Sequence record: MK327941.1
DNA: 64,000 bases
DNA from: Escherichia phage vB_EcoM_G37-3
Direction: 5' to 3' (one strand)
In this document: positions 2,783-61,102 of the stretch, in pieces
Layout of the letters: each line of letters begins with the position of its first letter
Position numbering within the stretch: the stretch's first letter is position 1
Program-made: the position numbers and the translations under genes
The notes under the pieces: generated by a model
What the model saw: the letters and a program-made list of their open reading frames with translations, nothing else
What the model was told of the DNA's origin: nothing
The model's database searches: none

Positions 2783-2802
2783 CCTTTTGTTTTCGATGGG
2801 GA

Positions 2803-2832
2803 CATTATGATATATCCCCGATCCAGTGTCAA
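2803..2832 (-). promoter_or_regulatory. sigma70-like early promoter (PeSL-type), TTGACA-N17-CATAAT
   Basis: -35 TTGACA and -10 CATAAT on minus strand; -10 flanked by inverted repeat GGGGA/TCCCC; coordinates approximate. Confidence 0.55.
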
Positions 2833-2839
2833 CAGATTT

Positions 2840-3139
2840 TTAATCTTTTTTCAATGCATCCATTACTCGCTCTGCGATCAGTTCTCGTAAGCACTGATAA
2901 CCATGATATTTGATGGCAATGTCACGCAGATCATTAACCAGTTCCCGTACTTCATGGTCTTTCAGATCGTCTCTGTATTTCGATTTAACCGTGTCTTTAG
3001 GTGGATTGTGGATAACCTGAAAACCTTGTTCTGCAATCAATGCGGCTTCGCGCTGGCGTTCATGCTGTACTGTATTTTTGATCAGGTCTGCTTCCATGAA
3101 CTTTGCCATACTCATCATCATGTTATTCTTTTTGCTCAT
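2840..3139 (-). CDS. hypothetical protein (99 aa)
   Basis: Internal ATG at 3139 behind GAGGA RBS; track start lacks an RBS. Confidence 0.5.
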   Translation of the reverse strand: MSKKNNMMMSMAKFMEADLIKNTVQHERQREAALIAEQGFQVIHNPPKDTVKSKYRDDLKDHEVRELVNDLRDIAIKYHGYQCLRELIAERVMDALKKD

Positions 3140-3173
3140 CGTTAAATCCTCATAAAAGAAAAGGGAGACTCCC

Positions 3174-3201
3174 ATTATAGAGAATCTCCCTTGTATGTCA
3201 A
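3174..3201 (-). promoter_or_regulatory. sigma70-like early promoter (PeSL-type), TTGACA-N16-TATAAT
   Basis: -35/-10 on minus strand with GGGAGA/TCTCCC inverted repeat around -10; approximate. Confidence 0.55.
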
Positions 3202-3761
3202 CTAAAATTTAAAGATGCAAACTCCCCGTGATGAATTTTTGCATATTCATCATATGCTCTAGCGGCTTCCTCCTGAGTAGCAAACGATCCTATGTATTTT
3301 CTGTATCCGTTTATCCTTATTTGTGCTTGCCACGGTCTTTTGCTAGATCCTTTGCGATGAGTAACACCATTATATATGCTCGTGCACCCGTCCATTTTCT
3401 TTTTATTGTACATGTTTTGTTGTTGTGTTGCCTCCCGTAAATTTGGTGGATTGTTGTTTTCTGGATTCCCGTCTATGTGGTCTATTACCTTAACCTGTGT
3501 TCCATATTCAAGAAACCAGACAATTCTATGTACAAGATATGTAGATGTTCTCTTTTTAACCTTATTGTAAACATCTATTGCCAAATGACCGTAATTTAAC
3601 TTTTTTGTTTTTACTTTATCACCGACTTGGTAGAAATATCCCTCTGGTAGACCATTAAAAGACGGACTATTTGTTTTGTGATATAGAACACCTTCCGTGT
3701 GTTCAAATCTGCGTTTTAATTCCTCTTGAATTTCAGTATTCCAAAATTTCGCACTTTTCAT
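3198..3761 (-). CDS. HNH homing endonuclease with C-terminal AP2 DNA-binding domain
   Basis: HNH motif HIDGNPENNNPPNL; AP2-like YNGVTHRKGSSKRPWQAQIRINGYRKYIGSFATQEEAARAYDEYA; directly downstream of gp39. Confidence 0.8.
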   Translation of the reverse strand: MKSAKFWNTEIQEELKRRFEHTEGVLYHKTNSPSFNGLPEGYFYQVGDKVKTKKLNYGHLAIDVYNKVKKRTSTYLVHRIVWFLEYGTQVKVIDHIDGNPENNNPPNLREATQQQNMYNKKKMDGCTSIYNGVTHRKGSSKRPWQAQIRINGYRKYIGSFATQEEAARAYDEYAKIHHGEFASLNFS

Positions 3762-3762
3762 A

Positions 3763-5586
3763 TTATGACGCCATCCATGCCTTCCTCATGTCTGAATCTT
3801 CGCTATAGAGCAAATCGAATAGCTCTTTATAGTTTTCCGGTAACGTGATGATCTCCATGACAGGATCGTTGATCACGCGATGATAATCTGATTCTGTGAG
3901 CGATGCTAAACCTTTGATATATCGAATGTTGTAACCTTTGATATTATCTCGGTCGTTCTCGAAATCTTCTAGGTCATAATACCATCGAACATCATCACCT
4001 TTCTTTGGTTCCGCAATGATAATAGGTGTTTTGATAAACCGGATTCGTCCATCTTCGAACAATTCAGGCCAACGTGCAAAGAAAGAGATCAGACTAGGTT
4101 TAATAGACCCGATCCCGTCAGTATCAGCGTCGGTCATAATCGCAATATTTTTGTATTGCATAACTTCCAATGCATCAACACCAAATTGCAAGCCAGTGAT
4201 CGCCATGATGTTAAAAATTTCGGCGTTCTTAACGATCTTTGCCTCCGGTTGTTCCCACGTTGTAAGAGTTTTGCCTCGCAACGGGAAACCTCCATGTAAA
4301 TCTTGATCACGTACAGAGATCAGATAGTTGATCGCGGAATCACCTTCCGTCAAAAACAGGGTAGTTTCTGCGTCAGTTCCAATAAGGTTAGCTTTAACGT
4401 GTTTTGCCACCTTAGCCCGTTTCGCTGCCTTTGCTGCCTTAGTCGCTGCCGCTTTATCTGCTGCCTCTTTGCGTGCCAGGACTACAGCAATAATAGGCAT
4501 GATAATGTTTTCTTTCTTAGCAATGACTTTAGCCAGCTTTTTAAAATCAAGATCAATATGACGCTTGATATCACCAGTCGGGTTAGTCAAGCGTTCTTTT
4601 GTCTGTGAATCAAAACGAAGGTTAGGCAATTCACGAACAATAAGAATACAGGTCAATCCAGACTTAACCGCAGCTTTAGTAACATCAACCTTATATTCTT
4701 TCTTGATTCGTTTTACAATCTCTTCACAAAGATCATCTGTCACATAATCAACGTGTGTTCCCCCGTTTTTGGTAAACAGACCGTTAGCAAAGGATACTGA
4801 TTTAAAACCTTCTCCCTCGACCGCAGGAACTAGGGCAAGTGAAAAGTTTTTATCTTCAATGACAAACGGATCATCATTGTATAGTTTAGCATAATCCTTG
4901 AACTTGCTGGTTATCTTTTTGCCATTAAACTTAAACGTGATCTTAGGAAAGATTACACTCAATGAATACATTCGATCGCAAATCACATCTGAAATTTCTT
5001 GTGACATGATCATACCTTCAAAATGATCGAAATCGGGGCAGAACGTAACCTTAGTTCCTTTCAGTTTTGACGGCTTAGATGACCAGCTAATATTTTCTGC
5101 ACCATTGGTACATTGAACGGTCAGTTCATTCTCTCCGTCACACGTCACACCAGTAAACCAGGACGAGAAAAATGATGTGAGCGCGCTTCCGATCCCATTC
5201 ATACCCATAGTAACACGATTTGTATCATCAAAGTTAGACCCTGCTTTAGCTCGTGTCCATGCAGCAACTGGTTGTGGAATCTGTTTCCCTTCTGGCGTCG
5301 TAACAATATGTTGCGGAATACCGCGACCATTATCTGTTACTGACACAATGTTATCTTTTATATCCACACTAATAACATTAGCGTACTCAAAATTCGTGCG
5401 GATCGCCTCGTCTACAGAGTTGTCGATAATTTCATCAATAATTTTAACTAGACCAGGAACATATGACACTTTGGTCCATTTTCCAAATAGGAAACGATTA
5501 TGTGATTCATAAGTCGTTGACCCGATGTACATTGAAGGTCTCTTAAGACAGTGAGCGCGATCATCTAACAGTAAAAATTCACTCAT
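3763..5586 (-). CDS. 39: DNA topoisomerase II large subunit gp39, unsplit (covers T4 gp39 plus gp60)
   Basis: 607-aa ORF; GHKL ATPase motifs IIDNSVDE, DNGRGIP, GGTHVDY, TOPRIM-like LFLTEGDSA; T4 has this split into genes 39 and 60. Confidence 0.9.
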   Translation of the reverse strand: MSEFLLLDDRAHCLKRPSMYIGSTTYESHNRFLFGKWTKVSYVPGLVKIIDEIIDNSVDEAIRTNFEYANVISVDIKDNIVSVTDNGRGIPQHIVTTPEGKQIPQPVAAWTRAKAGSNFDDTNRVTMGMNGIGSALTSFFSSWFTGVTCDGENELTVQCTNGAENISWSSKPSKLKGTKVTFCPDFDHFEGMIMSQEISDVICDRMYSLSVIFPKITFKFNGKKITSKFKDYAKLYNDDPFVIEDKNFSLALVPAVEGEGFKSVSFANGLFTKNGGTHVDYVTDDLCEEIVKRIKKEYKVDVTKAAVKSGLTCILIVRELPNLRFDSQTKERLTNPTGDIKRHIDLDFKKLAKVIAKKENIIMPIIAVVLARKEAADKAAATKAAKAAKRAKVAKHVKANLIGTDAETTLFLTEGDSAINYLISVRDQDLHGGFPLRGKTLTTWEQPEAKIVKNAEIFNIMAITGLQFGVDALEVMQYKNIAIMTDADTDGIGSIKPSLISFFARWPELFEDGRIRFIKTPIIIAEPKKGDDVRWYYDLEDFENDRDNIKGYNIRYIKGLASLTESDYHRVINDPVMEIITLPENYKELFDLLYSEDSDMRKAWMAS

Positions 5587-5685
5587 TATTAAACCTCTTC
5601 ATAACATAACCATAACTTACTGCAACCGCCACAAAGACGGCTGCAACAATCATATTAAAAATTGAGTGATTGTCAAGTATATGAC

Positions 5686-5859
5686 TCATGACACGCGCAC
5701 ATTTTTATCATAGTACCCGCCATTAATCCCGCGCGGGGCAGTTAATCCCTGTTTGCATTCTTTACCACATTCAGGGCATTCTGCCTTTTCACGTTCGGAA
5801 ATTTTGCGGATTTTCTGAAATTGACCGTGTTCTTCACAAGAATAATCATATAATGGCAT
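5686..5859 (-). CDS. FmdB-family zinc-ribbon protein (57 aa)
   Basis: MPLYDYSCEEHGQF...CPECG pattern; ATG at 5859 behind AAAGGGGA RBS, just after dexA stop. Confidence 0.5.
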   Translation of the reverse strand: MPLYDYSCEEHGQFQKIRKISEREKAECPECGKECKQGLTAPRGINGGYYDKNVRVS

Positions 5860-6773: not shown

Positions 6774-6774
6774 A

Positions 6775-8836: not shown

Positions 8837-9591
8837 TATAAACCTACCTTCGCTTTCATCAATTCAATCCACGACGCATCAATCGGAAGCCCGTATTTCA
8901 CGCGTTCTTTTTGTGCTGGCGTTAAGTTCTCATACTTAGAAAGAGATTCAATCAAAACGCTGGTATATTTTAGCACGATTTCGGTATTGTTTGCAATAGC
9001 CTTAAGTTTTTCTTCTTTCTTGTTGATTTCGCTAAGGGCTTGCTTGAGATCTGCAATTTTCTGATAACGTTCTTCCATACGGAAGAGAGTATTTTTAATC
9101 GCTCGCTCGGCTGCCTCTGCTTTCTCCGGTTCGTTGTGCTTTTTATGGCGCTCGATTGCTAATTTCTTTTCTTCGATTGCCATTTCCTGATTTTTGATGC
9201 GATTCTCGTTAAGTTCGATCCACTCGATGTACTTCGCACGTAGGGCAATTTCATCATCAGAAAGTTTACCGTTAGTTCCTAGTTCCTGGATCTCTTTAAG
9301 AGATTCGATAGTGTGATTGCCACGGAAAGAATTATATTTCAGTTTAACCGGAATTACATTGCCATCAACATATCCCAGATTGCAATCAATGCGCTCTAAG
9401 GAGAGTCCGTCATCACCTTCACCGAAAGCCTCACCGGAATAGACGCAATGAGTCTGTCGGTAAATGTTACGCACAGTGACTAAGCTCATAGAGAAGTCTT
9501 TGTTGCGACGTGAAGCACCAGCCATGATAGAGTTCAGACGGAAAACAACCAGAGCCAATTCTTCGTTAGATTTAAAAGCAAACAGTTTCAT
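8836..9591 (-). CDS. hypothetical coiled-coil protein (251 aa); at the T4 srd position
   Basis: ATG at 9591 behind AAGGAGAATCAATT leader; Srd assignment is positional only. Confidence 0.45.
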   Translation of the reverse strand: MKLFAFKSNEELALVVFRLNSIMAGASRRNKDFSMSLVTVRNIYRQTHCVYSGEAFGEGDDGLSLERIDCNLGYVDGNVIPVKLKYNSFRGNHTIESLKEIQELGTNGKLSDDEIALRAKYIEWIELNENRIKNQEMAIEEKKLAIERHKKHNEPEKAEAAERAIKNTLFRMEERYQKIADLKQALSEINKKEEKLKAIANNTEIVLKYTSVLIESLSKYENLTPAQKERVKYGLPIDASWIELMKAKVGL

Positions 9592-9616
9592 AATTGATTC
9601 TCCTTAGTTGGTATGT

Positions 9617-9648
9617 GTGTATTATTGTCTATCTGGTTTGTGCTGTCA
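9617..9648 (-). promoter_or_regulatory. sigma70-like early promoter (PeSL-like)
   Basis: TTGACA on minus strand followed by an A/T-rich -10 candidate; approximate. Confidence 0.4.
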
Positions 9649-9652
9649 ACAC

Positions 9653-10156
9653 TTAAATTAAAGAAAATTTGTAAATCTCTATCAGATCGCCGTTACACGC
9701 GTAAACTTCCTCGATCTCATCAAGGATCATGGTCGTCCCTGTCTTGTATATGCACTCTCGCTCATCTGCCAACATAGCATACAAAGACAGTCGAGTAGTC
9801 GGATTGTCATACTCTTTAGACACCACTCTGTCAATAGCATGTTCGTAATAATTCATGCAAGGCTTGGTAGGTTTTATTGCAATAATCTTTCCTGTTGCAT
9901 AAACATCGGTTGCAAAGTCCTCTGCGGTTGATTGCAGTGGCGTAAAGCTCATAGGACGCTCTACAACGAAAGAATCACCTACAATTAAGGTATCCAGCTT
10001 ACGGCCTTCTCTTTTGCTCACACCGCGATACAAGGCTTCGTGATGCACTAACCGTTCAGTCTTTTCAATCAATCCATTAAGGATCGACATATCGATATTT
10101 TCTTTAGAGTTCATCACTTCATCAATGATGTTAAGTTCTTCTGGTGTAAATTGCAT
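9653..10156 (-). CDS. putative ADP-ribosyltransferase (ModA/ModB-like)
   Basis: R (LYRG), S-x-T (MSFT) and E-x-E (ADEREC) in the order of the R-S-EXE signature; lies at the T4 modA/modB position. Confidence 0.45.
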   Translation of the reverse strand: MQFTPEELNIIDEVMNSKENIDMSILNGLIEKTERLVHHEALYRGVSKREGRKLDTLIVGDSFVVERPMSFTPLQSTAEDFATDVYATGKIIAIKPTKPCMNYYEHAIDRVVSKEYDNPTTRLSLYAMLADERECIYKTGTTMILDEIEEVYACNGDLIEIYKFSLI

Positions 10157-10157
10157 A

Positions 10158-10189
10158 ATAAAAAAGCCTCCAATCTTTCGACGGGAGGC
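10158..10189 (-). terminator. intrinsic terminator hairpin that also contains the downstream RBS
   Basis: Minus strand GCCTCCCGTCGAAAGATTGGAGGC then T6, immediately before ATG at 10156. Confidence 0.5.
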
Positions 10190-10237
10190 ATAATAAAACC
10201 ATTATAGAGTAGTGTCAATCACAAAGTGTATGTGATC

Positions 10238-17180: not shown

Positions 17181-17369
17181 CTATTCAGTTAATCCGTAAT
17201 ACTTTAATTGCTTCATTGTTATTCGATCTTTGTAGTGCTCTTGAATTAACTTTTTCATCGCATCAACATCGATCGTCACAAATACTTCGTTGCTGTGATT
17301 TCCGTGAACTTTCTTGAAATGCTCTATGCCTTCCTCACGTTCACGTTTAATCTTTTCAATGTCTCTCAT
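17181..17369 (-). CDS. hypothetical protein (62 aa)
   Basis: Internal ATG at 17369 just downstream of an early promoter; track start is GTG. Confidence 0.4.
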   Translation of the reverse strand: MRDIEKIKREREEGIEHFKKVHGNHSNEVFVTIDVDAMKKLIQEHYKDRITMKQLKYYGLTE

Positions 17370-17413
17370 AGTATATTTCTCACGTTGGCGGGTATCGTCA
17401 CACAACACCCGCC

Positions 17414-17441
17414 ATTATACACACTTTATCTTAAATGTCAA
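17414..17441 (-). promoter_or_regulatory. sigma70-like early promoter TTGACA-N16-TATAAT
   Basis: Near-consensus -35 and -10 on minus strand in the gp43 to uvsX intergenic region; approximate. Confidence 0.6.
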
Positions 17442-20109
17442 ACAGGTCAGTAAGCGATGCAACTTTTTCGTATTGCAGCTTTGCAGCCGTGGTAATGTTC
17501 TCCAGCGGTTTGACGAAAGTCTTATTAAACAACAAAGGCCAGTCTAACCACTTCAACACTTCTGATTCAATTTCTGGCGGAATACGAGTACCAGACAACC
17601 AACCAAAACAGATTTCTCCAAACGGATTTCGATCTTTAAGCGGTACAATCATAACCTTCTCGCCTTCACGAATCGGATCTAGTCCGAATTTTCTGGCATT
17701 ACGATTATAACACAATACACTCTTAACCGCATACGGACAACCCTTAATCGGATACCCGTTTGAATCGCTGTATTTCTGTAGGTTGTTTGCCGATGATACC
17801 GCAGCAACCTCAAGATAGTCAAGTTTTCGAAACTCTTGCTCAAAAATACCGTAGTATTCCTGCAATGACTCTTCCCCTTCCTGCAACATACGGCGAATAC
17901 ATTCTTTCAGTGATTTCTGACATGCTTTAGGGGTGGAGCTACGTTGCGTTTCCAAGCCCATGATTTTTAGCTTAGGTTCAGCAAAGCGCGTTCCTTCCAT
18001 ATCCCAAACATTAAGAGCATAACGCTTTTTGCCAGTCCAGAATCCACCGATACCCGCAGATTTCAACGGAGGACCAGCAATTGCCTCGCGGTCCATAAAC
18101 ATCAAGTGCTCGTAGTTGTTCATGTACTCGCATAACTCGCGATATCCCTTGTCGATAATAGGTTCCATTCGATGTTTACCGAAATTATCAAGGAAGTCAA
18201 CAAGTTTTTCGGTATCGTCGAAACGGTCTTCCCCGCCAACCTTATCAATAACATTGTTAACCAGCACATAAACGGAGTCAGTATCACAATAACGAACATA
18301 TGCAAAATCGGTTGTTCCGCAAAGATCGTTTAAGTATTCGTTAATCTTACGCTCAATCCACTGAATTGCAAGCTGACCGAACAGTGTGATCGCACTAGCG
18401 TTACGGAGATCATAAAAACGGAATTTAGGATTCCCCAACGCACCATAAAGGGAGTTGATCAAAACTTTTCGAGAAAGCTGGTTTGTATTGCACAAGATCG
18501 ACTCGTCTTTACATTCTTCCAGCAATTTCTCTAAGGCATCTTTACTTAATTCAGAAAGCATCGATTTAAACGCTTCATCAAAGTCGTGACGCACTTCAAC
18601 GCTATAGCTAATGGTTCCCCCATAAACATGATTTTCATCGTGTAGAATCGCTTTACAGAGTTCAGCATTGCGATCACATGCCAACATCATGTTTTTGTAC
18701 TGCTTACGCTGATCGAATACCTTTTTAATCTCAATCGGTACGATACCGTGAATATCTTTTCTATACATCCATCCGTTAGGCGAGCAAGAATACTCATCAC
18801 TCGGACGTGGTGCAGTTTTATTGATATACTCGTGCATCGGTGCAGCATCAAAAGATCCAGCGATTGTTTCAGGCGAAATATTAACCTGTCGAATAATAGA
18901 TGGGTACAGACTTGTTAAGTCAAAGCTCATCATCCAACGGTAAGCATTCGGCACAGGTTCTTTTACGAATGCGCCTGGATACGTCTGCTTAGGCTGTATC
19001 TTATTTTCCGGTACTACTTTACCCTCAGCTTTCAGAGATCCGAAGATAATAGCATCCCATACTTTCATTGGGTTATAAACATGGTTAAATTTAATCTTTG
19101 CATAGAAACATAGGCTATACACCAGATCAATAAAACCACGCTTTTTATCAATCGCCAGCACACGGTCAACGTCGCCGATGTTATAATCTATGTAAAGTTG
19201 ATGGTTGTCATCACGCAATTTCTTTAACGGACCATCATAATCAACCTTACCGATTCCGGTCTCATATTCAGCAACATAATCTAACGCATATGTTGGTTGA
19301 GTCGTAAAGCTAAATTTCTTGTACAGGTCAATATAATCAAGGCTTTCGATCCCCATGATCGTAAATGCTTCACGCTCGTTGCCAAAATCATCCTGTGAGA
19401 TTCGGGATTTAATCTTACCGCACGGGCTTAGACGGTTAGCGGTTCTACTTCCGAACTTATTACTGATACGTTTAATGATATACGGTATATCGAATGTTTC
19501 TGTGTTCCAGCCAGTGAAACCAACGGGTCGGTTTTCCTCAAAGAATCGGATGTATTCTAACAGCAATTCATCTTCTGTGTCGTAGACGTTATAAACAACG
19601 CGCTCTACAATATCAGGTCGAAGAATAGACTTGCTAGATTCCCAGATTTCACCGTTTTTTCCTTTCAAATCAAATACAAAGAAACGATCATGTACGGAAT
19701 CATAATGCGTAATTGCATCGATAGGATATTTCGCTTCTTCTGGTTTAGGAAATTCTGGGGCAGTGACCTCGATATCAACCCATGCTACACGGATTTTATT
19801 TCGGTCATATCGAATCTCGCCTTTATACGTATCAGACAGATAGGAGATGATAAAATCATCCATCCCTAGCGCCTCTTGCCCCATTTCTCCCATCTTTTTA
19901 CGCCATTTGTTGGCCTCGTTCATAGATGGGAATTTTTTAGCAATGCAAGGCTTGCCATAGATATCTTTATAATTCGTAACCATACCAGGCGCGGCATGAT
20001 GAAATAATGTTGGCGTATATTCAACGTAACGCTCTTGTTCTTGTCCAGCATCATCAATATAACGCTCGTAGATCTTATCACCTACTCGCTCACATGACAG
20101 AAAATACAT
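17431..20109 (-). CDS. 43: DNA polymerase gp43 (family B)
   Basis: About 892 aa from ATG at 20109 behind GAAGGAG RBS (track start is GTG); exonuclease and polymerase motifs match T4 gp43 along the whole length. Confidence 0.95.
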   Translation of the reverse strand: MYFLSCERVGDKIYERYIDDAGQEQERYVEYTPTLFHHAAPGMVTNYKDIYGKPCIAKKFPSMNEANKWRKKMGEMGQEALGMDDFIISYLSDTYKGEIRYDRNKIRVAWVDIEVTAPEFPKPEEAKYPIDAITHYDSVHDRFFVFDLKGKNGEIWESSKSILRPDIVERVVYNVYDTEDELLLEYIRFFEENRPVGFTGWNTETFDIPYIIKRISNKFGSRTANRLSPCGKIKSRISQDDFGNEREAFTIMGIESLDYIDLYKKFSFTTQPTYALDYVAEYETGIGKVDYDGPLKKLRDDNHQLYIDYNIGDVDRVLAIDKKRGFIDLVYSLCFYAKIKFNHVYNPMKVWDAIIFGSLKAEGKVVPENKIQPKQTYPGAFVKEPVPNAYRWMMSFDLTSLYPSIIRQVNISPETIAGSFDAAPMHEYINKTAPRPSDEYSCSPNGWMYRKDIHGIVPIEIKKVFDQRKQYKNMMLACDRNAELCKAILHDENHVYGGTISYSVEVRHDFDEAFKSMLSELSKDALEKLLEECKDESILCNTNQLSRKVLINSLYGALGNPKFRFYDLRNASAITLFGQLAIQWIERKINEYLNDLCGTTDFAYVRYCDTDSVYVLVNNVIDKVGGEDRFDDTEKLVDFLDNFGKHRMEPIIDKGYRELCEYMNNYEHLMFMDREAIAGPPLKSAGIGGFWTGKKRYALNVWDMEGTRFAEPKLKIMGLETQRSSTPKACQKSLKECIRRMLQEGEESLQEYYGIFEQEFRKLDYLEVAAVSSANNLQKYSDSNGYPIKGCPYAVKSVLCYNRNARKFGLDPIREGEKVMIVPLKDRNPFGEICFGWLSGTRIPPEIESEVLKWLDWPLLFNKTFVKPLENITTAAKLQYEKVASLTDLFDI

Positions 20110-20141
20110 AATATAAACTCCTTCATTTACGAAAGACACTC

Positions 20142-20170
20142 ATTATAGGGGAATCGACCTAGTTTGTCAA
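20142..20170 (-). promoter_or_regulatory. sigma70-like early promoter TTGACA-N17-TATAAT upstream of gene 43
   Basis: Consensus hexamers flanked by AGGGG/CCCCT inverted repeat; approximate. Confidence 0.6.
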
Positions 20171-43378: not shown

Positions 43379-43402
43379 AATATAATCCTCACATCGTTCA
43401 TT

Positions 43403-43441
43403 TGATGCGGTCATTATATGATAACCGCATTTTCATGTCAA
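43403..43441 (-). promoter_or_regulatory. early promoter (PeSL-type) TTGACA-N17-TATAAT
   Basis: -10 inside GCGGT/ACCGC inverted repeat; approximate. Confidence 0.5.
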
Positions 43442-43766: not shown

Positions 43767-44045
43767 TTACATGTCTTGCAGTGCATAAAAGCATTTTTCT
43801 TCATAGTCATAGAAAATGTCAAAGTATGCTTTTTCTACATACTCACCATTGATCCAAGCGGCAGTAACAATCAGAGTGGTCCAGTTCGATCCGCTCTCAA
43901 CGGTAAAGGTTTTAATACCCAGCTTCGCTGCCAAGTCGAACGCAAACCGGACGCAACCACGGCAGGAAGTGATATTTGAAGTTTTGATTTTAAAGCCACC
44001 GCGAGTTTTGGTAATTTCTACTTTAGCGAAAGACAGGTTGCTCAT
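43767..44045 (-). CDS. hypothetical protein (92 aa)
   Basis: AAGGAGAATCAAA leader after an early promoter. Confidence 0.5.
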   Translation of the reverse strand: MSNLSFAKVEITKTRGGFKIKTSNITSCRGCVRFAFDLAAKLGIKTFTVESGSNWTTLIVTAAWINGEYVEKAYFDIFYDYEEKCFYALQDM

Positions 44046-44087
44046 TTTGATTCTCCTTAAGAAAGTGTGTTTCGTTTTGATGTGTGT

Positions 44088-44116
44088 AGTATAGGGGATA
44101 TGTGATCCCCTGTCAA
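44088..44116 (-). promoter_or_regulatory. early promoter (PeSL-type) TTGACA-N17-TATACT
   Basis: Spacer hairpin GGGGATCACATATCCCC; approximate. Confidence 0.5.
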
Positions 44117-45626: not shown

Positions 45627-45917
45627 TCAAATACTGGTTTTGCGAAGATGGTCATTACATGCTTTTAATGCATCAGTCGAGGTGTCATAGCGAGTATTAT
45701 CATAGCACCAGTAACCATCTGTCAACTGATAAATTAATCCATCCTTTTTAGCGTCGATGAAAGACAATTCTTTGAAAGTTTCTACTTTCTTTGCTGATAC
45801 TCCACGGTCACGGCGTTTATAGAGTTTAGCTAAAACGCGTTCAGCTTGTTCCTCTTTATCGCCAGACAGATCCCAGATGACGTTTCTGATATGCTTGATT
45901 AATTGTTCAGTGGTCAT
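45627..45917 (-). CDS. hypothetical protein (96 aa)
   Basis: AAGGAGAATCAAAT leader after an early promoter. Confidence 0.5.
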   Translation of the reverse strand: MTTEQLIKHIRNVIWDLSGDKEEQAERVLAKLYKRRDRGVSAKKVETFKELSFIDAKKDGLIYQLTDGYWCYDNTRYDTSTDALKACNDHLRKTSI

Positions 45918-45947
45918 ATTTGATTCTCCTTAGTTGGTATGGTTATC

Positions 45948-45975
45948 ATTATACGGGGATTTCTCCCCGTGTCAA
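45948..45975 (-). promoter_or_regulatory. early promoter (PeSL-type) TTGACA-N16-TATAAT
   Basis: Spacer hairpin CGGGGAGAAATCCCCG, the same hairpin as at 26947..26975; approximate. Confidence 0.55.
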
Positions 45976-45978: not shown

Positions 45979-46200
45979 TTAAATGATCTCTGCTTCACCG
46001 TTAAGGAAGAAAGACCATGTTTTGTTAGGATAACGAAGCGCCCATGATTCAGCAGTTTTAACACCAGCTTCGAACAATTGACGGCTGGTTACTTTAGCCA
46101 TACCATCTTCGATGGCAACGTTTTCAATAATCATCGGGTACTTAGCACCACGCATGAAACCGAAGCCAGCGGAAGATTTGATAATTTTAACAGTTGCCAT
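45979..46200 (-). CDS. hypothetical protein (73 aa)
   Basis: Internal ATG at 46200 behind AGGAGAATCAAAA leader. Confidence 0.45.
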   Translation of the reverse strand: MATVKIIKSSAGFGFMRGAKYPMIIENVAIEDGMAKVTSRQLFEAGVKTAESWALRYPNKTWSFFLNGEAEII

Positions 46201-46239
46201 TTTTGATTCTCCTAGAAAGTGTCGTGTTTCGATGGGTGT

Positions 46240-46268
46240 ATTATGCAATAACACCGGATCGCTGTCAA
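46240..46268 (-). promoter_or_regulatory. early promoter (PeSL-type) TTGACA-N17-CATAAT
   Basis: Hexamers on minus strand with conserved ACACCCATCGAAAC leader; approximate. Confidence 0.5.
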
Positions 46269-47253: not shown

Positions 47254-47452
47254 TCTTCACGGTCTCCATAATTGTTTTGTAAGCCAGCTTAAGATGATCA
47301 CCGAAAAACTTTGCAGTGTTACCCTTCGGATCGCGGAGCATGGTTTCTACGATCTCATCGGCAGTAACAATTTCTCCTTTCTTTGCTGCATGTTCTACCA
47401 TATACTTCAAAGTTTCTTCGGAAGCAAGTGCTGCGGCTACTGGATTAATCAT
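47243..47452 (-). CDS. hypothetical protein (69 aa)
   Basis: AAAGGAGAACCAAA leader after an early promoter. Confidence 0.45.
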   Translation of the reverse strand: MINPVAAALASEETLKYMVEHAAKKGEIVTADEIVETMLRDPKGNTAKFFGDHLKLAYKTIMETVKNAK

Positions 47453-47481
47453 TTTGGTTCTCCTTTGTTGTCGATGTGTGC

Positions 47482-47510
47482 ATTATGCTATACCCTATTC
47501 CTGTTGTCAA
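47482..47510 (-). promoter_or_regulatory. early promoter (PeSL-type) TTGACA-N17-CATAAT
   Basis: Hexamers on minus strand; approximate. Confidence 0.5.
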
Positions 47511-47520
47511 CACCTAAAAA

Positions 47521-47551
47521 CGAAAAAGCCACCCTTTCGGATGGCTTTTTG
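47521..47551. terminator. bidirectional intrinsic terminator hairpin
   Basis: AAAAAGCCACCCTTTCGGATGGCTTTTT with A/T runs on both sides. Confidence 0.6.
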
Positions 47552-50655: not shown

Positions 50656-51246
50656 TCAATAGCGTTTAGTCTTAAGAATGCCTTTACTCTTTAGATGGTT
50701 AGCCTTTTTTAGTACGTCATCAGCATAACCTAATCCGGCTTTATAGTTCCATCCAGCATTGTAAGAAGCTAGCGCGAGTCGGATATTACCGTTTCGAACA
50801 TCCAGCCAGTATGCTAACTCATCCATCGCGTAGAATGCAGAAACCTCGCGATTCATGATAAAGTTGATAGTCTGGCGATCACTCATTTTAACACCGCGCT
50901 TTGCATTTTTCGCTTTCACCGTTTTAAGGTAATTTTGAAATAATCCATAAGCATGATGATTTTTCTTTGGTGCTAAGTTTGCACCCGCGCTTGATTCTTG
51001 CCATGCGATACCCGCCAGGATGTGACCTAAACCCTTTCCGTTATAGCGAATATTCGGATGGTACTTTTTCAACTTACCGCTTTTCTCAAATTGCTCGCCG
51101 TATTGATAGGCGAAATGTAAATTATCTAGTTGGTGTGGTGTAAAGTTGTCTATCGGCGCTTTTTTGATCGGTGCGCTAGTCGATGCGTGTGTAGCACCAA
51201 CGGCTAGTGACAGACTCAATACTATCGCTTTTAGAACTTTTAACAT
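50656..51246 (-). CDS. secreted lytic transglycosylase (SLT domain)
   Basis: Signal-like N-terminus MLKVLKAIVLSLSLAVGATHA; SLT motifs GIAWQESS and AYGLFQ. Confidence 0.65.
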   Translation of the reverse strand: MLKVLKAIVLSLSLAVGATHASTSAPIKKAPIDNFTPHQLDNLHFAYQYGEQFEKSGKLKKYHPNIRYNGKGLGHILAGIAWQESSAGANLAPKKNHHAYGLFQNYLKTVKAKNAKRGVKMSDRQTINFIMNREVSAFYAMDELAYWLDVRNGNIRLALASYNAGWNYKAGLGYADDVLKKANHLKSKGILKTKRY

Positions 51247-51332
51247 TAATTTCTCCTGTTTGGCTTAACTTTCTGATTCCATAATATAGCCCTATCACCA
51301 GAAAGTCAAGCATTATTTTTAACCAATTTCCA

Positions 51333-51755
51333 TTATTGGTCTACCTTCAAAACAACCGCCGACATTTTACCCGCCAGTCGTTTTGGATTCTCTATAATCA
51401 TTCGGCAGCATAGACCGTGATATGGCTTACCCTCTTCGATTAGATCTACTGTCATCCCGATCCACATGTTACCGTCAGTAATTTCTAATCGATTCGGTCG
51501 GTCTTCCATTTTCAGGAAGTCGAAGATCTCCGGCAAACGAGTTTCTATCTTATTGAATAGTTCCATTGTCTTATGTTCATCGATATGACGATCGGTTAGA
51601 CGGTCGATCATATGCGGACTAAAGCGAATGAAAATATACTCACCATAACCATCATTCAAGCACTTTTCTTTGATCTTCGCATTGGTTTTGCGCATTTCGG
51701 TTTCGAAGAATCTACGCAGCTTACTACGGCGAACATGTACGTTAATTGTTTCCAT
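51333..51755 (-). CDS. hypothetical protein (140 aa)
   Basis: Internal ATG at 51755 behind AAGGA RBS. Confidence 0.45.
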   Translation of the reverse strand: METINVHVRRSKLRRFFETEMRKTNAKIKEKCLNDGYGEYIFIRFSPHMIDRLTDRHIDEHKTMELFNKIETRLPEIFDFLKMEDRPNRLEITDGNMWIGMTVDLIEEGKPYHGLCCRMIIENPKRLAGKMSAVVLKVDQ

Positions 51756-51759
51756 TTTA

Positions 51760-52095
51760 TTATCCTTTCTTAAACAAATTGCGAATCCAGTATACAAACG
51801 GGATTTCTTTAAACTTGAACTTGTCAATAGTTAATTCTTTAGTAGCAAGATGAATACCATAAGCATCATGTGTCACGATATGCCATTTTCTATAGTCCAA
51901 ATGTGAACAACCGTCTGGATCTAGGTTAATAAGAGTTTCTCGCTCACTAGGATTATTTTTCCACAATTTTGTAATAGGATCGCACATAATTCGACCTAGC
52001 GTACCATGAATAATCTCACAACGGTAAAGTTTTCCAGCAGTGAGATAGGCGCACCCGTCATAGTCTGTATAAACAAACACTTCTTTAACACTCAT
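51760..52095 (-). CDS. small protein, GCSHL-motif tandem paralog A
   Basis: DPDGCSHLDYRKWHIV; AAGGAGTATTAAA leader after an early promoter. Confidence 0.45.
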   Translation of the reverse strand: MSVKEVFVYTDYDGCAYLTAGKLYRCEIIHGTLGRIMCDPITKLWKNNPSERETLINLDPDGCSHLDYRKWHIVTHDAYGIHLATKELTIDKFKFKEIPFVYWIRNLFKKG

Positions 52096-52123
52096 TTTAA
52101 TACTCCTTTGTTTCGATGGGGGT

Positions 52124-52152
52124 ATATTACTACCCCCGTTTTGTTGTGTCAA
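52124..52152 (-). promoter_or_regulatory. early promoter (PeSL-type) TTGACA-N17-TAATAT
   Basis: -10 inside GGGGGTA/TACCCCC inverted repeat; approximate. Confidence 0.5.
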
Positions 52153-57693: not shown

Positions 57694-58020
57694 TTAGAAA
57701 GAAACAGTTTTCAAGAAATCCAGATTTTTAGTACCGAAAACAGAAAAGTAGTGTTTTCCTTTTTCGGTTTTAGAGAAAGCGATTGTCTTCTCTACATGGT
57801 GACGGAAGCCAGACAGACGATCACCCAGGTCAAGGCGGCAAGCGTAAGTAGTGCCGTTTTCGAAAGTAACCTCGATTTGAGTTTTGTCATATTCGCTTTC
57901 ATAGGCTTTTGCTGCCGCGTCCTGTGCTTTACGCTCGAAGTCTTCGAAGTGGAATACTTCGTTTGCGTTAGCGAATACAGAAGATTCAGAGAAGATAACT
58001 TTAACAGATACTGGTTTCAT
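57694..58020 (-). CDS. hypothetical protein (108 aa)
   Basis: AAGGAGTATCAAA leader after an early promoter. Confidence 0.5.
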   Translation of the reverse strand: MKPVSVKVIFSESSVFANANEVFHFEDFERKAQDAAAKAYESEYDKTQIEVTFENGTTYACRLDLGDRLSGFRHHVEKTIAFSKTEKGKHYFSVFGTKNLDFLKTVSF

Positions 58021-58043
58021 TTTGATACTCCTTAGTAGTTCGT

Positions 58044-58073
58044 GTTTCGTTTCGATGGGTGTATTATGCTATA
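58044..58073 (-). repeat. PeSL core repeat copy 1 (GTTTCGTTTCGATGGGTGTATTATGCTATA)
   Basis: Near-identical 30-mer recurs at about 59022 and 61012; approximate. Confidence 0.6.
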
Positions 58074-58091
58074 CACCCTCTCGCGTGTCAA
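58063..58091 (-). promoter_or_regulatory. early promoter (PeSL-type) TTGACA-N17-CATAAT
   Basis: -10 inside GGGTGTA/TACACCC inverted repeat; approximate. Confidence 0.55.
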
Positions 58092-58514: not shown

Positions 58515-58742
58515 TTATAGTTGATCAGCAATGTATGCGGTGCATTTGCGGAGTTTAGCCATAGCACCACCTTTCATGTCGCTTGCGCCTACAATGTTCA
58601 TGATCTCTAAGCGATCAGCCGGATTCAGTCTAGTAGCCAAGATCTGGTTAGCCAGTTCCATTTTACCCATCTGCGGTTCCATCTCAAACATTTCACGCTC
58701 AAAGTCGATAATTTCTTTTGCTGCGTCTTTAAAGTTAATCAT
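58515..58742 (-). CDS. hypothetical protein (75 aa)
   Basis: GGGAGGACCAAA leader after an early promoter. Confidence 0.45.
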   Translation of the reverse strand: MINFKDAAKEIIDFEREMFEMEPQMGKMELANQILATRLNPADRLEIMNIVGASDMKGGAMAKLRKCTAYIADQL

Positions 58743-58771
58743 TTTGGTCCTCCCGTTTCGTTGATGGTTGT

Positions 58772-58800
58772 ATTGTAGGGGAGTTATCCTCCCCTGTCAA
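58772..58800 (-). promoter_or_regulatory. early promoter (PeSL-type) TTGACA-N17-TACAAT
   Basis: Spacer hairpin GGGGAGGATAACTCCCC; approximate. Confidence 0.5.
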
Positions 58801-58808: not shown

Positions 58809-58994
58809 TCAGAAATATGCAATATAGTTTGCCAGTCCTACAGAGTCATCATTCGGCATTGCTTTTACCGCCAGTTCAAACCCTGCTTCAACTTTCTGTT
58901 TAGCGGATTCTTCGTTATAACCCCAGATGACCAGAATAGCTACTACGTTTTCTTTGCTTACTGCTTTCAGTGCTTTAGTGATGCGACGTGCCAT
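58809..58994 (-). CDS. hypothetical protein (61 aa)
   Basis: ACGGAGAATCAAAT leader after an early promoter. Confidence 0.45.
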   Translation of the reverse strand: MARRITKALKAVSKENVVAILVIWGYNEESAKQKVEAGFELAVKAMPNDDSVGLANYIAYF

Positions 58995-59021
58995 AATTTG
59001 ATTCTCCGTTTAAGAAAGTGT

Positions 59022-59050
59022 GTTTCGTTTCGATGGGTGTATTATGCTAT
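59022..59050 (-). repeat. PeSL core repeat copy 2
   Basis: Same 30-mer as at 58044 and 61012; approximate. Confidence 0.6.
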
Positions 59051-59069
59051 AGGCGTGATCTGGTGTCAA
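59041..59069 (-). promoter_or_regulatory. early promoter (PeSL-type) TTGACA-N17-CATAAT
   Basis: Hexamers on minus strand; approximate. Confidence 0.55.
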
Positions 59070-59094
59070 CAACTTTTTTAAAAAATTTTAGGCA

Positions 59095-59266
59095 ATAAAA
59101 AAGCCACTCCGAAGAGTGGCTTATAGGGAAGGTAGCGAATCTTCCTTATCTCCAACCTGCTAGCGGCCTAGCAAGTGAATGCTTTAGCGTACCGGATCAC
59201 CCCCATACGCTGTAATAAATGCGGCTAGGTGACGTCCAAATCATTCTAACCGCGCTGTCTTTAGTT
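59095..59266 (-). ncRNA. candidate structured small RNA (about 170 nt) behind a late promoter
   Basis: No ORF longer than 14 codons; four predicted hairpins (GCGGTTAG/CTAGCCGC, AGCGTA/TACGCT, GCTAG/CTAGC, GGAAG/CTTCC); ends in terminator GCCACTCTTCGGAGTGGC plus T-run. Confidence 0.4.
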
Positions 59267-60384: not shown

Positions 60385-60393
60385 ATTATCACC

Positions 60394-60552
60394 TTATTTG
60401 CTAATCGCTAAACCCAATCCGAAGAGAGCACCCGATGCTACAGTATACCCGAAAGTTTCAAAGGAAGTAAAGATATCTAAGCCGCCAGCTAACAGAGTTG
60501 CTGTAAACAGAGTACCAGCTACGAACATAAAAGTTTTACCGATAAATTTCAT
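60394..60552 (-). CDS. small membrane protein (52 aa)
   Basis: Below track cutoff; AAGGAGAATCAAA leader after an early promoter; Gly-rich hydrophobic. Confidence 0.35.
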   Translation of the reverse strand: MKFIGKTFMFVAGTLFTATLLAGGLDIFTSFETFGYTVASGALFGLGLAISK

Positions 60553-60583
60553 TTTGATTCTCCTTTCGTTTGTTTGTGGGGGT

Positions 60584-60612
60584 ATCTTACTACCCCCGTT
60601 TCATGTTGTCAA
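60584..60612 (-). promoter_or_regulatory. early promoter (PeSL-type) TTGACA-N17-TAAGAT
   Basis: -10 inside GGGGGTA/TACCCCC inverted repeat; approximate. Confidence 0.5.
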
Positions 60613-60618
60613 CTATTT

Positions 60619-60993
60619 TTAAGAATATTTTACTTCGTCTACAATATCTTTCATGACATTGATTTCCATTCCGGTCAGAACACGTTGGAACATGTGCTGC
60701 ACATACGCTTTCAGGTATTCATTTGATGGCTTGCTATCGAAAGTCTTTTTAGTGTAGTAGTCATCACCGAAAGCTACTGTAATTACATTTTCGTCGTCGT
60801 TCCAAGCGATATAAGCAAATTTGCCGTTATCCCAGAAGCGAGCACTAATTGCTACTTTTGTTGAATCGAATCCTACTTCGCTGTGAGATTCAAGAACTAC
60901 TTGCGTGCCAGTTTCTTTATGAATGTAGTAGCGGGATACTAAGTCAAAGTTACGGGTGTAGTGACATTCAAATTTATCTTTAAACATCATCAT
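60619..60993 (-). CDS. hypothetical protein (124 aa)
   Basis: ATG at 60993 behind TAGGAGAATCAAA leader; upstream part of track ORF overlaps the promoter. Confidence 0.5.
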   Translation of the reverse strand: MMMFKDKFECHYTRNFDLVSRYYIHKETGTQVVLESHSEVGFDSTKVAISARFWDNGKFAYIAWNDDENVITVAFGDDYYTKKTFDSKPSNEYLKAYVQHMFQRVLTGMEINVMKDIVDEVKYS

Positions 60994-61011
60994 TTTGATT
61001 CTCCTAAGTGT

Positions 61012-61041
61012 GTTTCGTTTCGATATGTGCATTATGCTATA
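61012..61041 (-). repeat. PeSL core repeat copy 3
   Basis: Same 30-mer as at 58044 and 59022 with two substitutions; approximate. Confidence 0.6.
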
Positions 61042-61059
61042 GTCGTTTATGGTTGTCAA
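61031..61059 (-). promoter_or_regulatory. early promoter (PeSL-type) TTGACA-N17-CATAAT
   Basis: Hexamers on minus strand; approximate. Confidence 0.55.
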
Positions 61060-61102
61060 CACCTAAAAACAAAAAACCCCGAAAATTTTTCGGGGTATAA
61101 AA

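Follow-up and report, generated by a model that had tools for sequence, protein, structure and literature searches.

Early promoter cassettes of a Krischvirus genome very probably belong to the PeSL elements of RB49/phi1-type phages

Promoter-early stem-loops (PeSLs) were defined in RB49 and phi1, two phages of the genus Krischvirus (Arbiol 2010, PMC2839356), which carry 51 and 52 copies, respectively (Arbiol 2010, PMC2839356; Comeau 2014, PMC4122927). The published element comprises TTGACA-N17-TATAAT with an AT-rich tract upstream and an SD and start codon at its 3' end, and its G(n)-loop-C(n) stems fall into five positions (subclasses), one of them 'overlapping the -10 box' (PMC2839356; PMC4122927). 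Promoter and terminator function have both been assayed with reporters (Arbiol 2010, PMC2839356), a single PeSL stem being used in the terminator test. Early promoters of RB49 have T or C at -12 and C at -3 to -1, in agreement with 5'-end mapping.

The window analysed here, a stretch of 64,000 nucleotides from Escherichia phage vB_EcoM_G37-3 (MK327941.1), derives from a Krischvirus, an RB49/phi1-like T4-type coliphage, and shares 99.8% identity with G5211 across the 8 kb that were compared (38000-46000). Its repeated motifs are very probably the PeSL cassettes of RB49/phi1-type T4-like phages, as the first-pass annotation had proposed. They match the published definition feature by feature, and the RB49 copies are orthologous, lying at the same positions with near-identical sequence. 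The copies with the -10 inside the stem (class A) occupy the same sites in RB49, GEC-3S, ECD7 and LF73P4, and the GEC-3S RefSeq record annotates these copies with promoter, -35 and -10 signals. The cassettes are thus genuine but ordinary, having been published in 2010 for the same T4-like coliphage group. The details new here are the covariation of the stem arms, the position of the hairpin end at the predicted +1, the distribution of the -10 hairpins complementary to that of T-run terminators, the match of GGAGAAUCAAA to the RegB/S1 consensus, and a local indel that breaks inside a cassette.

A search for TTGACA-N15-18-TANNAT returned 25 matches, all on the minus strand, with 1.40 expected; none of 100 shuffles reached 25, so that the motif is enriched over shuffled sequence, the comparison proposed at first pass. 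Exact TTGACA with a -10 filter is found 43 times on the minus strand and once on the plus strand. We catalogued 26 promoter cassettes with an SD and ATG 25-90 nt downstream, in line with the more than 20 announced earlier. The earlier claim that the -10 of these promoters lies within an inverted repeat holds for 10 of the 26 and was overstated for the others. Four of these are decayed class-A copies; the rest have their stem within the spacer, past the -10 or ahead of the -35. The ORFan-rich stretch at 34-62 kb holds 17 of the 26 cassettes. Gene 43 has cassettes on both flanks, as reported for g43 (Arbiol 2010, PMC2839356).

Table 1. Location and main features of the cassettes and associated elements in the window.
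Feature	Position	Strand	-35 at	ATG at	Details
PeSL class A	60550..60612	-	60612	60552	TTGACA-17-TAAGAT; stem GGGGGTA/TACCCCC around -10; leader; GGAGAATCAAA SD; hairpin -20..-1, -12.5 kcal/mol, without T-run
PeSL class A	58018..58091	-	58091	58020	TTGACA-17-CATAAT; stem GGGTGTAT/ATACACCC; leader CATCGAAACGAAACAC; family D1 reference copy
PeSL class A	52093..52152	-	52152	52095	TTGACA-17-TAATAT; stem GGGGGTA/TACCCCC
PeSL class A	46198..46268	-	46268	46200	TTGACA-17-CATAAT; stem GGTGT/ACACC; GGAGAATCAAA SD
PeSL class A	43376..43441	-	43441	43378	TTGACA-17-TATAAT; stem ATGCGGTTAT/ATGACCGCAT, one sense-strand T.G; GAGGATTATATT start cassette
PeSL class A	40154..40216	-	40216	40156	TTGACA-17-TAAAAT; stem ATGGGAGTA/TACTCCCAT; ARNOLD terminator annotation in G5211 record
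PeSL class A	39244..39306	-	39306	39246	TTGACA-17-TAAGAT; stem GGGAGTA/TACTCCC; GAGAGGATTATATT start cassette
PeSL class A	38011..38071	-	38071	38013	TTGACA-16-TATAAT; stem GGGAGTAT/ATACTCCC; GAGAGGATTATATT start cassette
PeSL class A with T-run	3137..3201	-	3201		13-bp stem AAGGGAGATTCTC/GGGAGTCTCCCTT around TATAAT, then TTCTTTT
PeSL class A	2771..2832	-	2832	2773	TTGACA-17-CATAAT; stem GGGGATAT/ATGTCCCC, one T.G; leader CATCGAAAAC
Decayed class A	60991..61096	-	61059	60993	CATAAT, stemless; T-run terminator 61076-61096, 16 nt upstream of -35; GGAGAATCAAA SD
Decayed class A	58992..59122	-	59069	58994	T-run terminator 59101-59122; GGAGAATCAAA SD
Decayed class A	47450..47550	-	47510	47452	T-run terminator 47523-47550; GGAGAACCAAA SD
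Decayed class A	35508..35605	-	35567	35510	T-run terminator 35584-35605, just downstream of nrdD
Listed part	58740..58800	-			
PeSL class B	45915..45975	-		45917	TTGACA-CGGGGAGAAATCCCCG-TATAAT
PeSL class B	44043..44116	-		44045	spacer stem GGGGAT..ATCCCC; -10 TATACT; leader CATCAAAACGAAACAC
PeSL class B	34349..34422	-		34351	-35 TTGACG; stem GGGGATC..GATCCCC; GGAGAATCAAA SD
PeSL class B	26919..26975	-		26921	-35 TTGACG; stem CGGGGAG..ATCCCCG
PeSL upstream of gene 43 (DNA polymerase)	20107..20170	-		20109	stem GGGG..CCCC across -35 and spacer
PeSL downstream of gene 43	17367..17441	-			TTGACA-16-TATAAT, directly followed by 13-bp stem GGCGGGT..ACCCGCC (-7..+22)
Class C, upstream of gene 44	22106..22196	-			TTGACT-17-TATAAT; hairpin GGGGAGT..ACTCCCC and T-run (+1..+20)
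Class C	10154..10218	-		10156	TTGACA-17-TATTAT; terminator GCCTCC..GGAGGC and TTTTTT (-6..+18)
Class C, upstream of 607-aa gene	5584..5676	-			TTGACA-16-TATGAT; 17-bp hairpin (-11..+31)
Cassette without convincing stem	9589..9649	-			AATAAT -10; leader ATACCAACTAAGGAGAATCAA common to the 45975 copy; family D10
Promoter upstream of vs.1	51244..51309	-			TTGACT-17-TATTAT; 16-bp imperfect stem, -34..+9; annotated promoter in GEC-3S record
Start cassette 2 (GTGAGGATTATATTATG) at rIIA	2107..2123	-			no promoter cassette directly upstream; families D6, D16, D17
Start cassette 2, further internal copies	16041-16057, 30927-30943, 39867-39883, 42249-42265				
Start cassette 2, further internal copies	45614-45630, 50271-50287, 57081-57097				
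regB gene (140 aa, Pfam REGB_T4) and leader GGATAATAAAATG	51333..51765	-			GGAU, then A-rich RegB/S1 consensus

A repeat search independently recovered the span 2783-61070 given at first pass, as a 61-nt family of 9 copies that extends from 2783-2843 to 61010-61070. The cassettes group into sequence families (D1-D5, D8-D10), some pairs being 87% identical over 61 nt, with an overall identity between copies of 60-70%. The near-identical 30-mer ascribed to three copies is an identical 32-mer at 58042 and 59020, while 61010 differs at 3 positions. With up to 3 mismatches allowed, AAGGAGAATCAAAATG has 12 matches (1.44 expected) and GAGAGGATTATATTATG has 14 (0.41 expected). The latter, described earlier as a second start cassette, was indeed found at rIIA (start 2109) and at 16043, 38013, 39246, 39869, 42251, 43378, 45616 and 57083. 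The conserved leader ACNCCCATCGAAAC is real in a subfamily but not general (9 genome-wide matches with 1 mismatch versus 4.3 expected). Exact CCATCGAAAC is present in 4 copies, and CATC near -1 to +3 in 60% or more of the 26 cassettes.

Of 44 TTGACA promoters, 9 have the -10 straddled by a perfect stem of 5 bp or more, against 2.9% for other -10-like hexamers, which is an 8.7-fold enrichment of such stems (Fisher P = 7e-6). Among 18 distinct copies, changes on both sides are observed at 9/9 stem pairs, the covariation score is 0.85 versus 0.20 in shuffles, and pairing reaches 100% over the inner 7 pairs, a percentage that follows from selection because the set was chosen for having stems. Mismatches within the GC core comprise 11 sense-strand G.T and 2 A.C, an asymmetry that appears only after this post hoc restriction (raw count 11 versus 14). 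The stem is under selection as structure. Could the repeats instead be the residue of cassette duplication, their stem and leader kept by recent common descent and functionless beyond the promoter hexamers? The sequence families and the closest pairs would fit this reading, whose probability is nevertheless next to negligible: inner stems stay paired through compensatory changes despite the low overall identity, pairing is kept in the relatives' orthologues via one-sided G.T changes, and stem loss coincides with terminator presence.

The 3' end of the hairpin lies at -1 to +7 in all ten class-A copies, with +1 predicted as the 7th nt past the -10 hexamer. Since the 3' arm of the -10-straddling stem ends at the predicted +1, the promoter's own transcript would lack the hairpin. 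Alternatively, the 3' arm (ACNCCC just before +1) might act as a C-rich discriminator or initiation context tuning open-complex lifetime, its 5' complementarity being incidental or secondary. The C preference at -3 to -1 reported for RB49, RB69 and 44RR early promoters is in keeping with this, as are the CCC/CAT sequences retained by decayed copies without the 5' arm (ACACCC at 59069). As a full account it is unlikely, for it leaves the enrichment of complementary 5' arms, the compensatory changes and the spacer and downstream stems unexplained; it is, however, compatible with the PeSL explanation rather than exclusive of it.

No T-run follows 9 of the 10 -10-straddling hairpins, which are therefore not canonical intrinsic terminators; the sole class-A copy resembling one is at 3137..3201 (-20.7 kcal/mol, T at 6 of the 8 nt past the stem). 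Of the intact copies, 0/10 have a T-run terminator in the 120 nt preceding the -35, compared with 4/4 of the decayed copies. Thus, -10 hairpins and T-run terminators are distributed complementarily. At the site orthologous to the 45975 copy, RB49 has a terminator and a stemless promoter, whereas in the window the promoter bears its stem in the spacer and a terminator is absent. This bears on the earlier suggestion of a protein-binding palindrome, in which a phage or host DNA-binding protein would read the inverted repeat GGGNGT...ACNCCC in the DNA duplex, either as a repressor ending early transcription or as a recombination helper. The G-rich and C-rich arms do share that recurring pattern, their location over the -10 would suit a repressor ideally, and a specific DNA-binding protein was speculated on by Arbiol et al. 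(PMC2839356). We consider such an operator extremely unlikely. Complementarity is kept while the arm sequence is not (up to 3-4 pair types per position), and this covariation argues against a sequence-specific operator; the placement of the stem with respect to the promoter varies among five positions, and decayed copies have an ordinary T-run terminator in place of the stem. The G.T mismatches tolerated in the GC core would also break the dyad symmetry of a duplex, and no candidate repressor was identified.

Under the PeSL explanation, each cassette would read, 5' to 3' on the minus strand, as an A-rich UP-like tract, a near-consensus host sigma-70 promoter (TTGACA, 16-17 nt, then TATAAT, CATAAT or TAAGAT), a G(n)-loop-C(n) stem-loop at one of several positions, a short A/C-rich leader beginning near CATCGAAAC, and an SD with start codon. 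Host RNA polymerase would fire these promoters right after infection, as suggested by orthology with RB49/phi1, for which immediate firing is demonstrated in the literature. The stem-loop would most likely work in RNA that reads through from the preceding cassette, where it would serve as an attenuator or 3'-end element and insulate neighbouring cassettes. The 60-100 nt or so of shared sequence would also provide homology patches for phage recombination, with an occasional cassette swap such as that of the gp38 adhesin cassette.

The mobility proposed at first pass gains weak support in the window: of about eight indels versus relatives in 34-64 kb, one has its breakpoint within a cassette. 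This gp38 swap breakpoint, seen against RB49, GEC-3S and ECD7, is the 45915..45975 cassette, and the break falls past the -10 but ahead of the leader, which is also where the published mini-circle crossover lies. Two of the other indels involve HNH homing endonuclease ORFs, as does a third by the GEC-3S annotation, and some of the remainder are intragenic. It is very unlikely that the stems are primarily DNA-level recombination sites, in cassettes mobile like integron attC, with phage recombination machinery (e.g. endonuclease VII, encoded at 40220-40693) cutting or binding cruciforms or folded single strands and any transcriptional effect secondary. Structure conserved without sequence is also a hallmark of attC sites, variable ORFans are bracketed by cassettes, the gp38 break is consistent with such a role, and experiments in RB49/phi1 detected mini-circles (PMC2839356). 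However, these genomes have no known integrase or dedicated recombinase (PMC2839356), the crossovers, whether published or observed here, map outside the stem, to the AT-rich tract or to the stretch from the -10 to the SD, and most local indels are not cassette-bounded. Replacement by T-run terminators fits an RNA element rather than a recombination site. Moreover, arms of just 7-9 bp are short for stable cruciform extrusion.

Finally, the GGAGAAUCAAA start context fits the RegB/S1 cleavage consensus, GGAGRAYARAA (PMC1702504), at 10 of 11 positions, the exception being a C at position 8, a site with a strong preference for A (PMC1702504). The relaxed pattern GGAGRAYNRAA has 10 matches (1.55 expected), every one at a minus-strand SD, and GGAG occurs in the SD of 18/25 promoter-proximal genes versus 25/93 others (P = 1e-4). 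GGAGAAUCAAA would thus most likely be an SD doubling as a putative RegB/S1 cleavage site, leading to rapid shut-off of promoter-proximal early genes, while the GAGGAUUAUAUU cassette, without GGAG, would escape RegB cleavage. The leader of the window's own regB gene resembles that reported for RB49 regB, with GGAU and an A-rich sequence (PMC3014915).

We searched the window for the promoter motif TTGACA-N15-18-TANNAT and found 25 matches where 1.40 are expected from shuffled sequence, an enrichment that bears out the promoters proposed in the first-pass annotation. All 25 lie on the minus strand. Exact TTGACA sites that pass the -10 filter number 43 on the minus strand versus one on the plus strand; the elements are thus strand-specific, and a function on the plus strand was rejected. 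With a Shine-Dalgarno (SD) sequence and a start codon required downstream of the promoter, 26 promoter cassettes were catalogued, each named here by its -35 coordinate. Seventeen of them are localized within 34-62 kb, amid small hypothetical genes, while cassettes 20170 and 17441 flank gene 43 and cassette 35567 follows nrdD. The upstream tract has the consensus ..AaaaAgttG-TTGACA, and the 25 nt 5' of the -35 box are 56-84% A+T in most copies. An unsupervised repeat search revealed a 61-nt family of nine copies. Its outermost members, 2783-2843 and 61010-61070, reproduce blind the outer limits, 2783 and 61070, that had been drawn around these promoters. The near-identical 30-mer described for three copies was also recovered: the copies at 58042 and 59020 are identical over a 32-mer, and that at 61010 differs at 3 positions.

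All 58 matching GenBank phage records belong to Krischvirus, the RB49/phi1/JSE/GEC-3S group of T4-like coliphages, and an 8-kb segment of the window (38000-46000) shares 99.8% identity with Escherichia phage vB_EcoM_G5211. An endonuclease VII search of IMG/VR returned only two Krischvirus contigs; the relatives used for comparison were taken from GenBank. In an annotated relative, nearly all genes are on the minus strand and follow the T4-type early and replication order (43, regA, 62, 44, 45, 46, 47, 55, nrdG/nrdD, 49, dam, tk, vs, regB, dmd, 57A, 1, 3), with dozens of small hypothetical genes scattered between. The gp43 open reading frame (ORF) is unbroken in the window and gene 43 of G5211 is split by an intron-like ORF.

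The cassettes are promoter-early stem-loop elements (PeSLs) of the RB49/phi1 type, a class previously described in this genus and in part characterised by experiment. PeSLs were defined in coliphages phi1 (52 copies) and RB49 (51 copies) as a sigma-70-consensus promoter with an AT-rich upstream tract, a polyG/polyC stem-loop in one of five positional subclasses, the whole ending 3' in an SD and a start codon (Arbiol et al. 2010, Genome Biol Evol 2:140, PMC2839356). They border g43 on both sides, occur at nrdD and favour hyperplastic, ORFan-rich regions, and PeSL mini-circles have been detected (PMC2839356). Promoter and terminator functions were tested with lacZ reporters, with in vivo promoter activity published for PeSL206/205 and terminator/attenuator activity for one stem, PeSL211/210 (PMC2839356). 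The RB49/phi1 formula has been restated as TTGACA-N17-TATAAT plus G(n)-loop-C(n) (Comeau et al. 2014, PMC4122927). For RB49 early transcripts, 5'-end mapping is cited.

This definition fits the window cassettes feature by feature, from genus, promoter spacing, AT-rich tract, stem positions and SD plus start codon to the liking for ORFan-rich regions and the flanks of g43 and nrdD, and we found no essential difference. Class-A copies, in which the stem straddles the -10, occupy the same sites with near-identical sequence in RB49, GEC-3S, ECD7 and LF73P4, and the GEC-3S RefSeq record labels them with promoter, -35 and -10 signals. The window represents another, G5211-like isolate, without the gp38 cassette at 45975 and with an extra HNH ORF. 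PeSLs of the T4/PST and KVP40/nt-1 pairs share the composite of promoter and stem-loop and the proposed role in modular shuffling, but their -35 boxes are TTTACW or TTGYVH and their stems AGNA-loop-TCNT or A3-4G3-loop-C3T3-4 (PMC4122927), whereas the window cassettes follow the sigma-70 consensus of RB49 and have G(n)/C(n) stems. The first-pass observation was thus largely right and its PeSL interpretation right. Its value as a discovery is small, since work published in 2010 on the same genus had described and named PeSLs and tested them in part, and public records annotate equivalent sites; a real, published regulatory architecture nonetheless proved recoverable from raw sequence.

Positions of the cassette classes, by -35 coordinate, and of other features in the window and its relatives
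Feature	Position	Remark
Class A, -10 in loop	60612, 58091, 52152, 46268, 43441, 40216, 39306, 38071, 3201, 2832	n = 10
Decayed class A	61059, 59069, 47510, 35567	n = 4
Stem between or over -35 and -10	58800, 45975, 44116, 34422, 26975, 20170	n = 6
Hairpin directly downstream of -10	22196, 17441, 10218, 5676	n = 4
Other cassettes	51309, 9649	n = 2
Antisense terminator-like hairpins	52115-52140 (+), 60576-60599 (+); also 40181-40224, 39271-39314	Simple scan
gp38 cassette site	Window 45941-45979; RB49 12158-13067; GEC-3S 13097-14009; ECD7 15158-17075
NUMOD4-HNH ORF	53331-53921 (-)	197 aa; Pfam NUMOD4 + HNH_3
HNH-AP2 ORF	Window site 55091-55122; G5211 36486-37061; RB49 21602-22254	191 aa
regB	51333-51755	Pfam REGB_T4, E = 1e-48
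regB leader	51755-51765 (-)	GGAUAAUAAAA
gp43 ORF	17431-20139
Dmd homologue	60194-60384 (-)	Pfam E = 7e-15
Repeat families D7 and D15	Genes 31.8-34.2 kb; repeats 32318-33699	Four neighbouring genes
Repeat family D14	Genes 6775-7120; repeat span 6770-7005	88% identical
Repeat family D19	Genes 38068-39246 and 39303-39887; repeat span 38939-39620	'goF-like' genes

Stem classes were assigned by folding each cassette, and for cassette 9649 folding gave no convincing stem. The first-pass annotation had placed the -10 inside an inverted repeat at more than 20 early promoters; the number of promoters stands, but a stem covers the -10 at only about ten. Perfect stems of 5 bp or more nevertheless cover the -10 at 9 of 44 TTGACA promoters; among other -10-like hexamers the share is 2.9% (8.7-fold enrichment, Fisher P = 7e-6). 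The conserved leader that had been reported, ACNCCCATCGAAAC, is real in one subfamily and not general across the cassettes. The leader motif CCATCGAAAC, with at most one mismatch, has 9 matches genome-wide versus 4.3 expected, barely over chance, which makes the leader a subfamily feature. CATC is found around +1 in at least 60% of the 26 cassettes. The Rfam 15 covariance models at gathering score gave no match over the whole window. An IMG/VR anchor scan with TTGACA-N28-29-ATCGAAAC, meant to gather copies with unconstrained arms, has only 14 fixed bases and was dropped; among the matches listed, most were chance ones in unrelated contigs.

We aligned 18 distinct class-A stems from the window and its relatives, ungapped and anchored on the loop, with the constant flanks as register. 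A MAFFT alignment, which took its register from the -10 hexamer and misaligned the two stem geometries against each other, was discarded. Both-sided changes were observed at 9 of 9 pairs, with up to four pair types per position, and the covariation score is 0.85 versus 0.20 for shuffles and at most 0.26 for slid controls. The inner seven pairs are formed in 18 of 18 stems, a percentage that follows from choosing sequences for having a stem and is therefore not independent evidence. Independent support comes from the enrichment of stems at the -10 and from one-sided changes in orthologues, which retain pairing through T.G. The palindrome at the -10 had also been considered as a possible protein-binding site. 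Such an operator would be expected to keep its half-site sequence at a fixed position, but the arms covary and the position of the stem relative to the promoter shifts among copies. The covarying pattern argues for a base-paired structure over a sequence-specific operator. Within pairs enclosed by the GC core, G.T mismatches, which a sense RNA tolerates, outnumber A.C mismatches by 11 to 2; this restriction was chosen post hoc, and the asymmetry is only suggestive because the unrestricted count is 11 versus 14. The peripheral A.C cases were all rejected as spurious extensions, for instance pairs between the ACA in TTGACA and the TAT in the -10.

The 3' arm of the class-A hairpin stops at -1 to +7 from the predicted start in 10 of 10 copies. 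The transcript of the promoter itself would thus lack the hairpin, which would be present solely in RNA reading through from upstream. Like Rho-independent terminators, the stems are GC-rich intergenic hairpins, and several of the -10 hairpins carry an ARNOLD terminator annotation in the G5211 record. They differ in that 9 of 10 copies have no T-run, with 0-2 T in the 8 nt past the stem, and hence are not canonical intrinsic terminators; a U-tract is found at 3201 and at the hairpins upstream of the four decayed copies, in which the class-A stem has degenerated. A canonical T-run terminator lies 12-31 nt 5' of the -35 box in 4 of 4 decayed and 0 of 10 intact copies (Fisher ~0.001, with the grouping made post hoc). 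In RB49 the orthologue of the 45975 site combines a terminator with a stemless promoter; the window copy has its stem in the spacer and lacks a terminator. From this complementarity and the 45975 contrast, stem and T-run terminator look interchangeable. This is indirect support for the published role as a terminator or attenuator of upstream transcription, and an action of that kind at the RNA level is the most likely function of the stem. In the antisense direction, on the plus strand, T-rich tails (GTTTCATGTTGT, TTTTGTTGTG) come after the -10 hairpins of the GGGNGTAG type, which a simple scan marks as terminator-like; these hairpins could be antisense or bidirectional terminators.

Two start cassettes recur at the genes of the window, the first, with GGAG in its SD context (GGAGAAUCAAA), 12 times versus 1.44 expected, and the second (GAGGAUUAUAUU) 14 times versus 0.41. 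Of 25 promoter-proximal genes, 18 have GGAG in their SD, versus 25 of 93 others (odds ratio 7, P = 1e-4). The target of RegB/S1 in T4 early mRNAs is an 11-nt single-stranded site, GGAGRAYARAA (GGAGAAUAAAA in T4), and cleavage within the SD inactivates these messages (Durand et al. 2006, PMC1702504). As in T4, the 11-nt site of the window starts at the GGAG in the SD of an early gene and continues as an A-rich tract, is found at promoter-proximal SDs and has regB encoded nearby. The window sites are predicted ones, and GGAGAAUCAAA fits the consensus in 10 of its 11 nucleotides; at position 8 it has C in place of the preferred A. The relaxed form GGAGRAYNRAA has 10 matches versus 1.55 expected, all 10 at minus-strand SDs and nine directly behind catalogued promoters. 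The second cassette is without GGAG and is found mostly at internal genes (rIIA, 16043, 39869, 42251, 45616, 57083), plus three promoter-proximal ones; every gene start listed for it in the first-pass annotation is correct. We infer that the SD in the first cassette would also serve as a RegB/S1 site and that the second cassette would be RegB-resistant. The leader of regB itself, GGATAATAAAATG, consists of GGAU and, behind it, a perfect A-rich RegB/S1 consensus. RB49 regB alone has a GGAU SD, and it is cleaved (review, PMC3014915); the window leader is consistent with this published autoregulatory cleavage. RegB is not mentioned in the PeSL paper (PMC2839356), and the link between RegB and PeSLs is our interpretation.

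Hairpin and GGAGAAUCAAA site may be coupled in RNA processing: cleavage by RegB at the SD would inactivate the message downstream, and the hairpin would protect the one upstream. The complementarity of stem and T-run, the end of the hairpin at the predicted +1 and the RegB/S1-like leader are modest refinements, possibly useful to workers on T4-like gene expression. Together they suggest that each cassette could hold, within about 90 nt, the signals to start transcription, to insulate it from read-through arriving from upstream and to inactivate the mRNA in a programmed way.

Indels were surveyed by aligning the 34-64 kb part of the window with six relatives. About eight events were found, of which one, at the gp38 site, breaks inside a cassette. 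There, RB49, GEC-3S and ECD7 carry a gene for a 258-aa gp38 adhesin between the terminator and promoter modules, in the early region. This long-tail-fibre adhesin determines the host range of RB49-like phages. The window, G5211 and LF73P4 have the 45975 cassette alone, with homology restarting between the -10 and the SD, and a gp38 homologue was sought across the 64-kb window and not found. The published mini-circle crossover falls in the same interval, from -10 to SD (PMC2839356). RB49-type gp38 has 75-91% amino-acid identity to gp38 of T-even-type phages of other genera, and this similarity suggests horizontal exchange.

The other indels examined lie outside cassettes; two are HNH ORFs confirmed by Pfam, one is an HNH ORF by annotation, and the rest of those examined lie within genes or operons. 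The window-specific NUMOD4-HNH homing endonuclease ORF, with a weak match to the I-TevI DNA-binding domain, is inserted between a terminator and nrdC.11 and is missing from the aligned G5211, RB49 and GEC-3S. An HNH-AP2 homing-endonuclease ORF is present in G5211 and RB49 and absent from the window and GEC-3S, and GEC-3S has an ORF annotated as an HNH homing endonuclease between nrdC and dam. The idea of a mobile cassette is illustrated but not statistically supported in this sample.

Integron gene cassettes (attC) and lambdoid 'morons', an analogy drawn by Arbiol et al. (PMC2839356), likewise consist of small accessory genes that carry their own expression signals and recombine at flanking repeats. 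In contrast to integrons, the PeSL system has no known integrase, its repeated element is the promoter itself, and exchange appears to be general homologous recombination over short patches. That the stems are strand-specific folded-DNA recombination sites like attC, read by a phage factor for structure and not sequence, strikes us as very improbable; the little weight we give it comes from the structure being kept while the sequence covaries, the strand-asymmetric mismatch tolerance and the break of the gp38 cassette inside the element. If so, the cassettes would be truly mobile and could carry host-range genes such as gp38 between T4-like genera.

A Dmd homologue is encoded inside the promoter-dense block; Dmd, the discriminator of mRNA degradation, is the antitoxin to host RnlA/LsoA. 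Four of the repeat families of the window (D7, D14, D15 and D19) are direct repeats within coding sequence. D7 and D15 form a conserved N-terminal coding segment common to four neighbouring genes, D14 corresponds to two adjacent small genes that are duplicates, and D19 is a segment common to two 'goF-like' genes.
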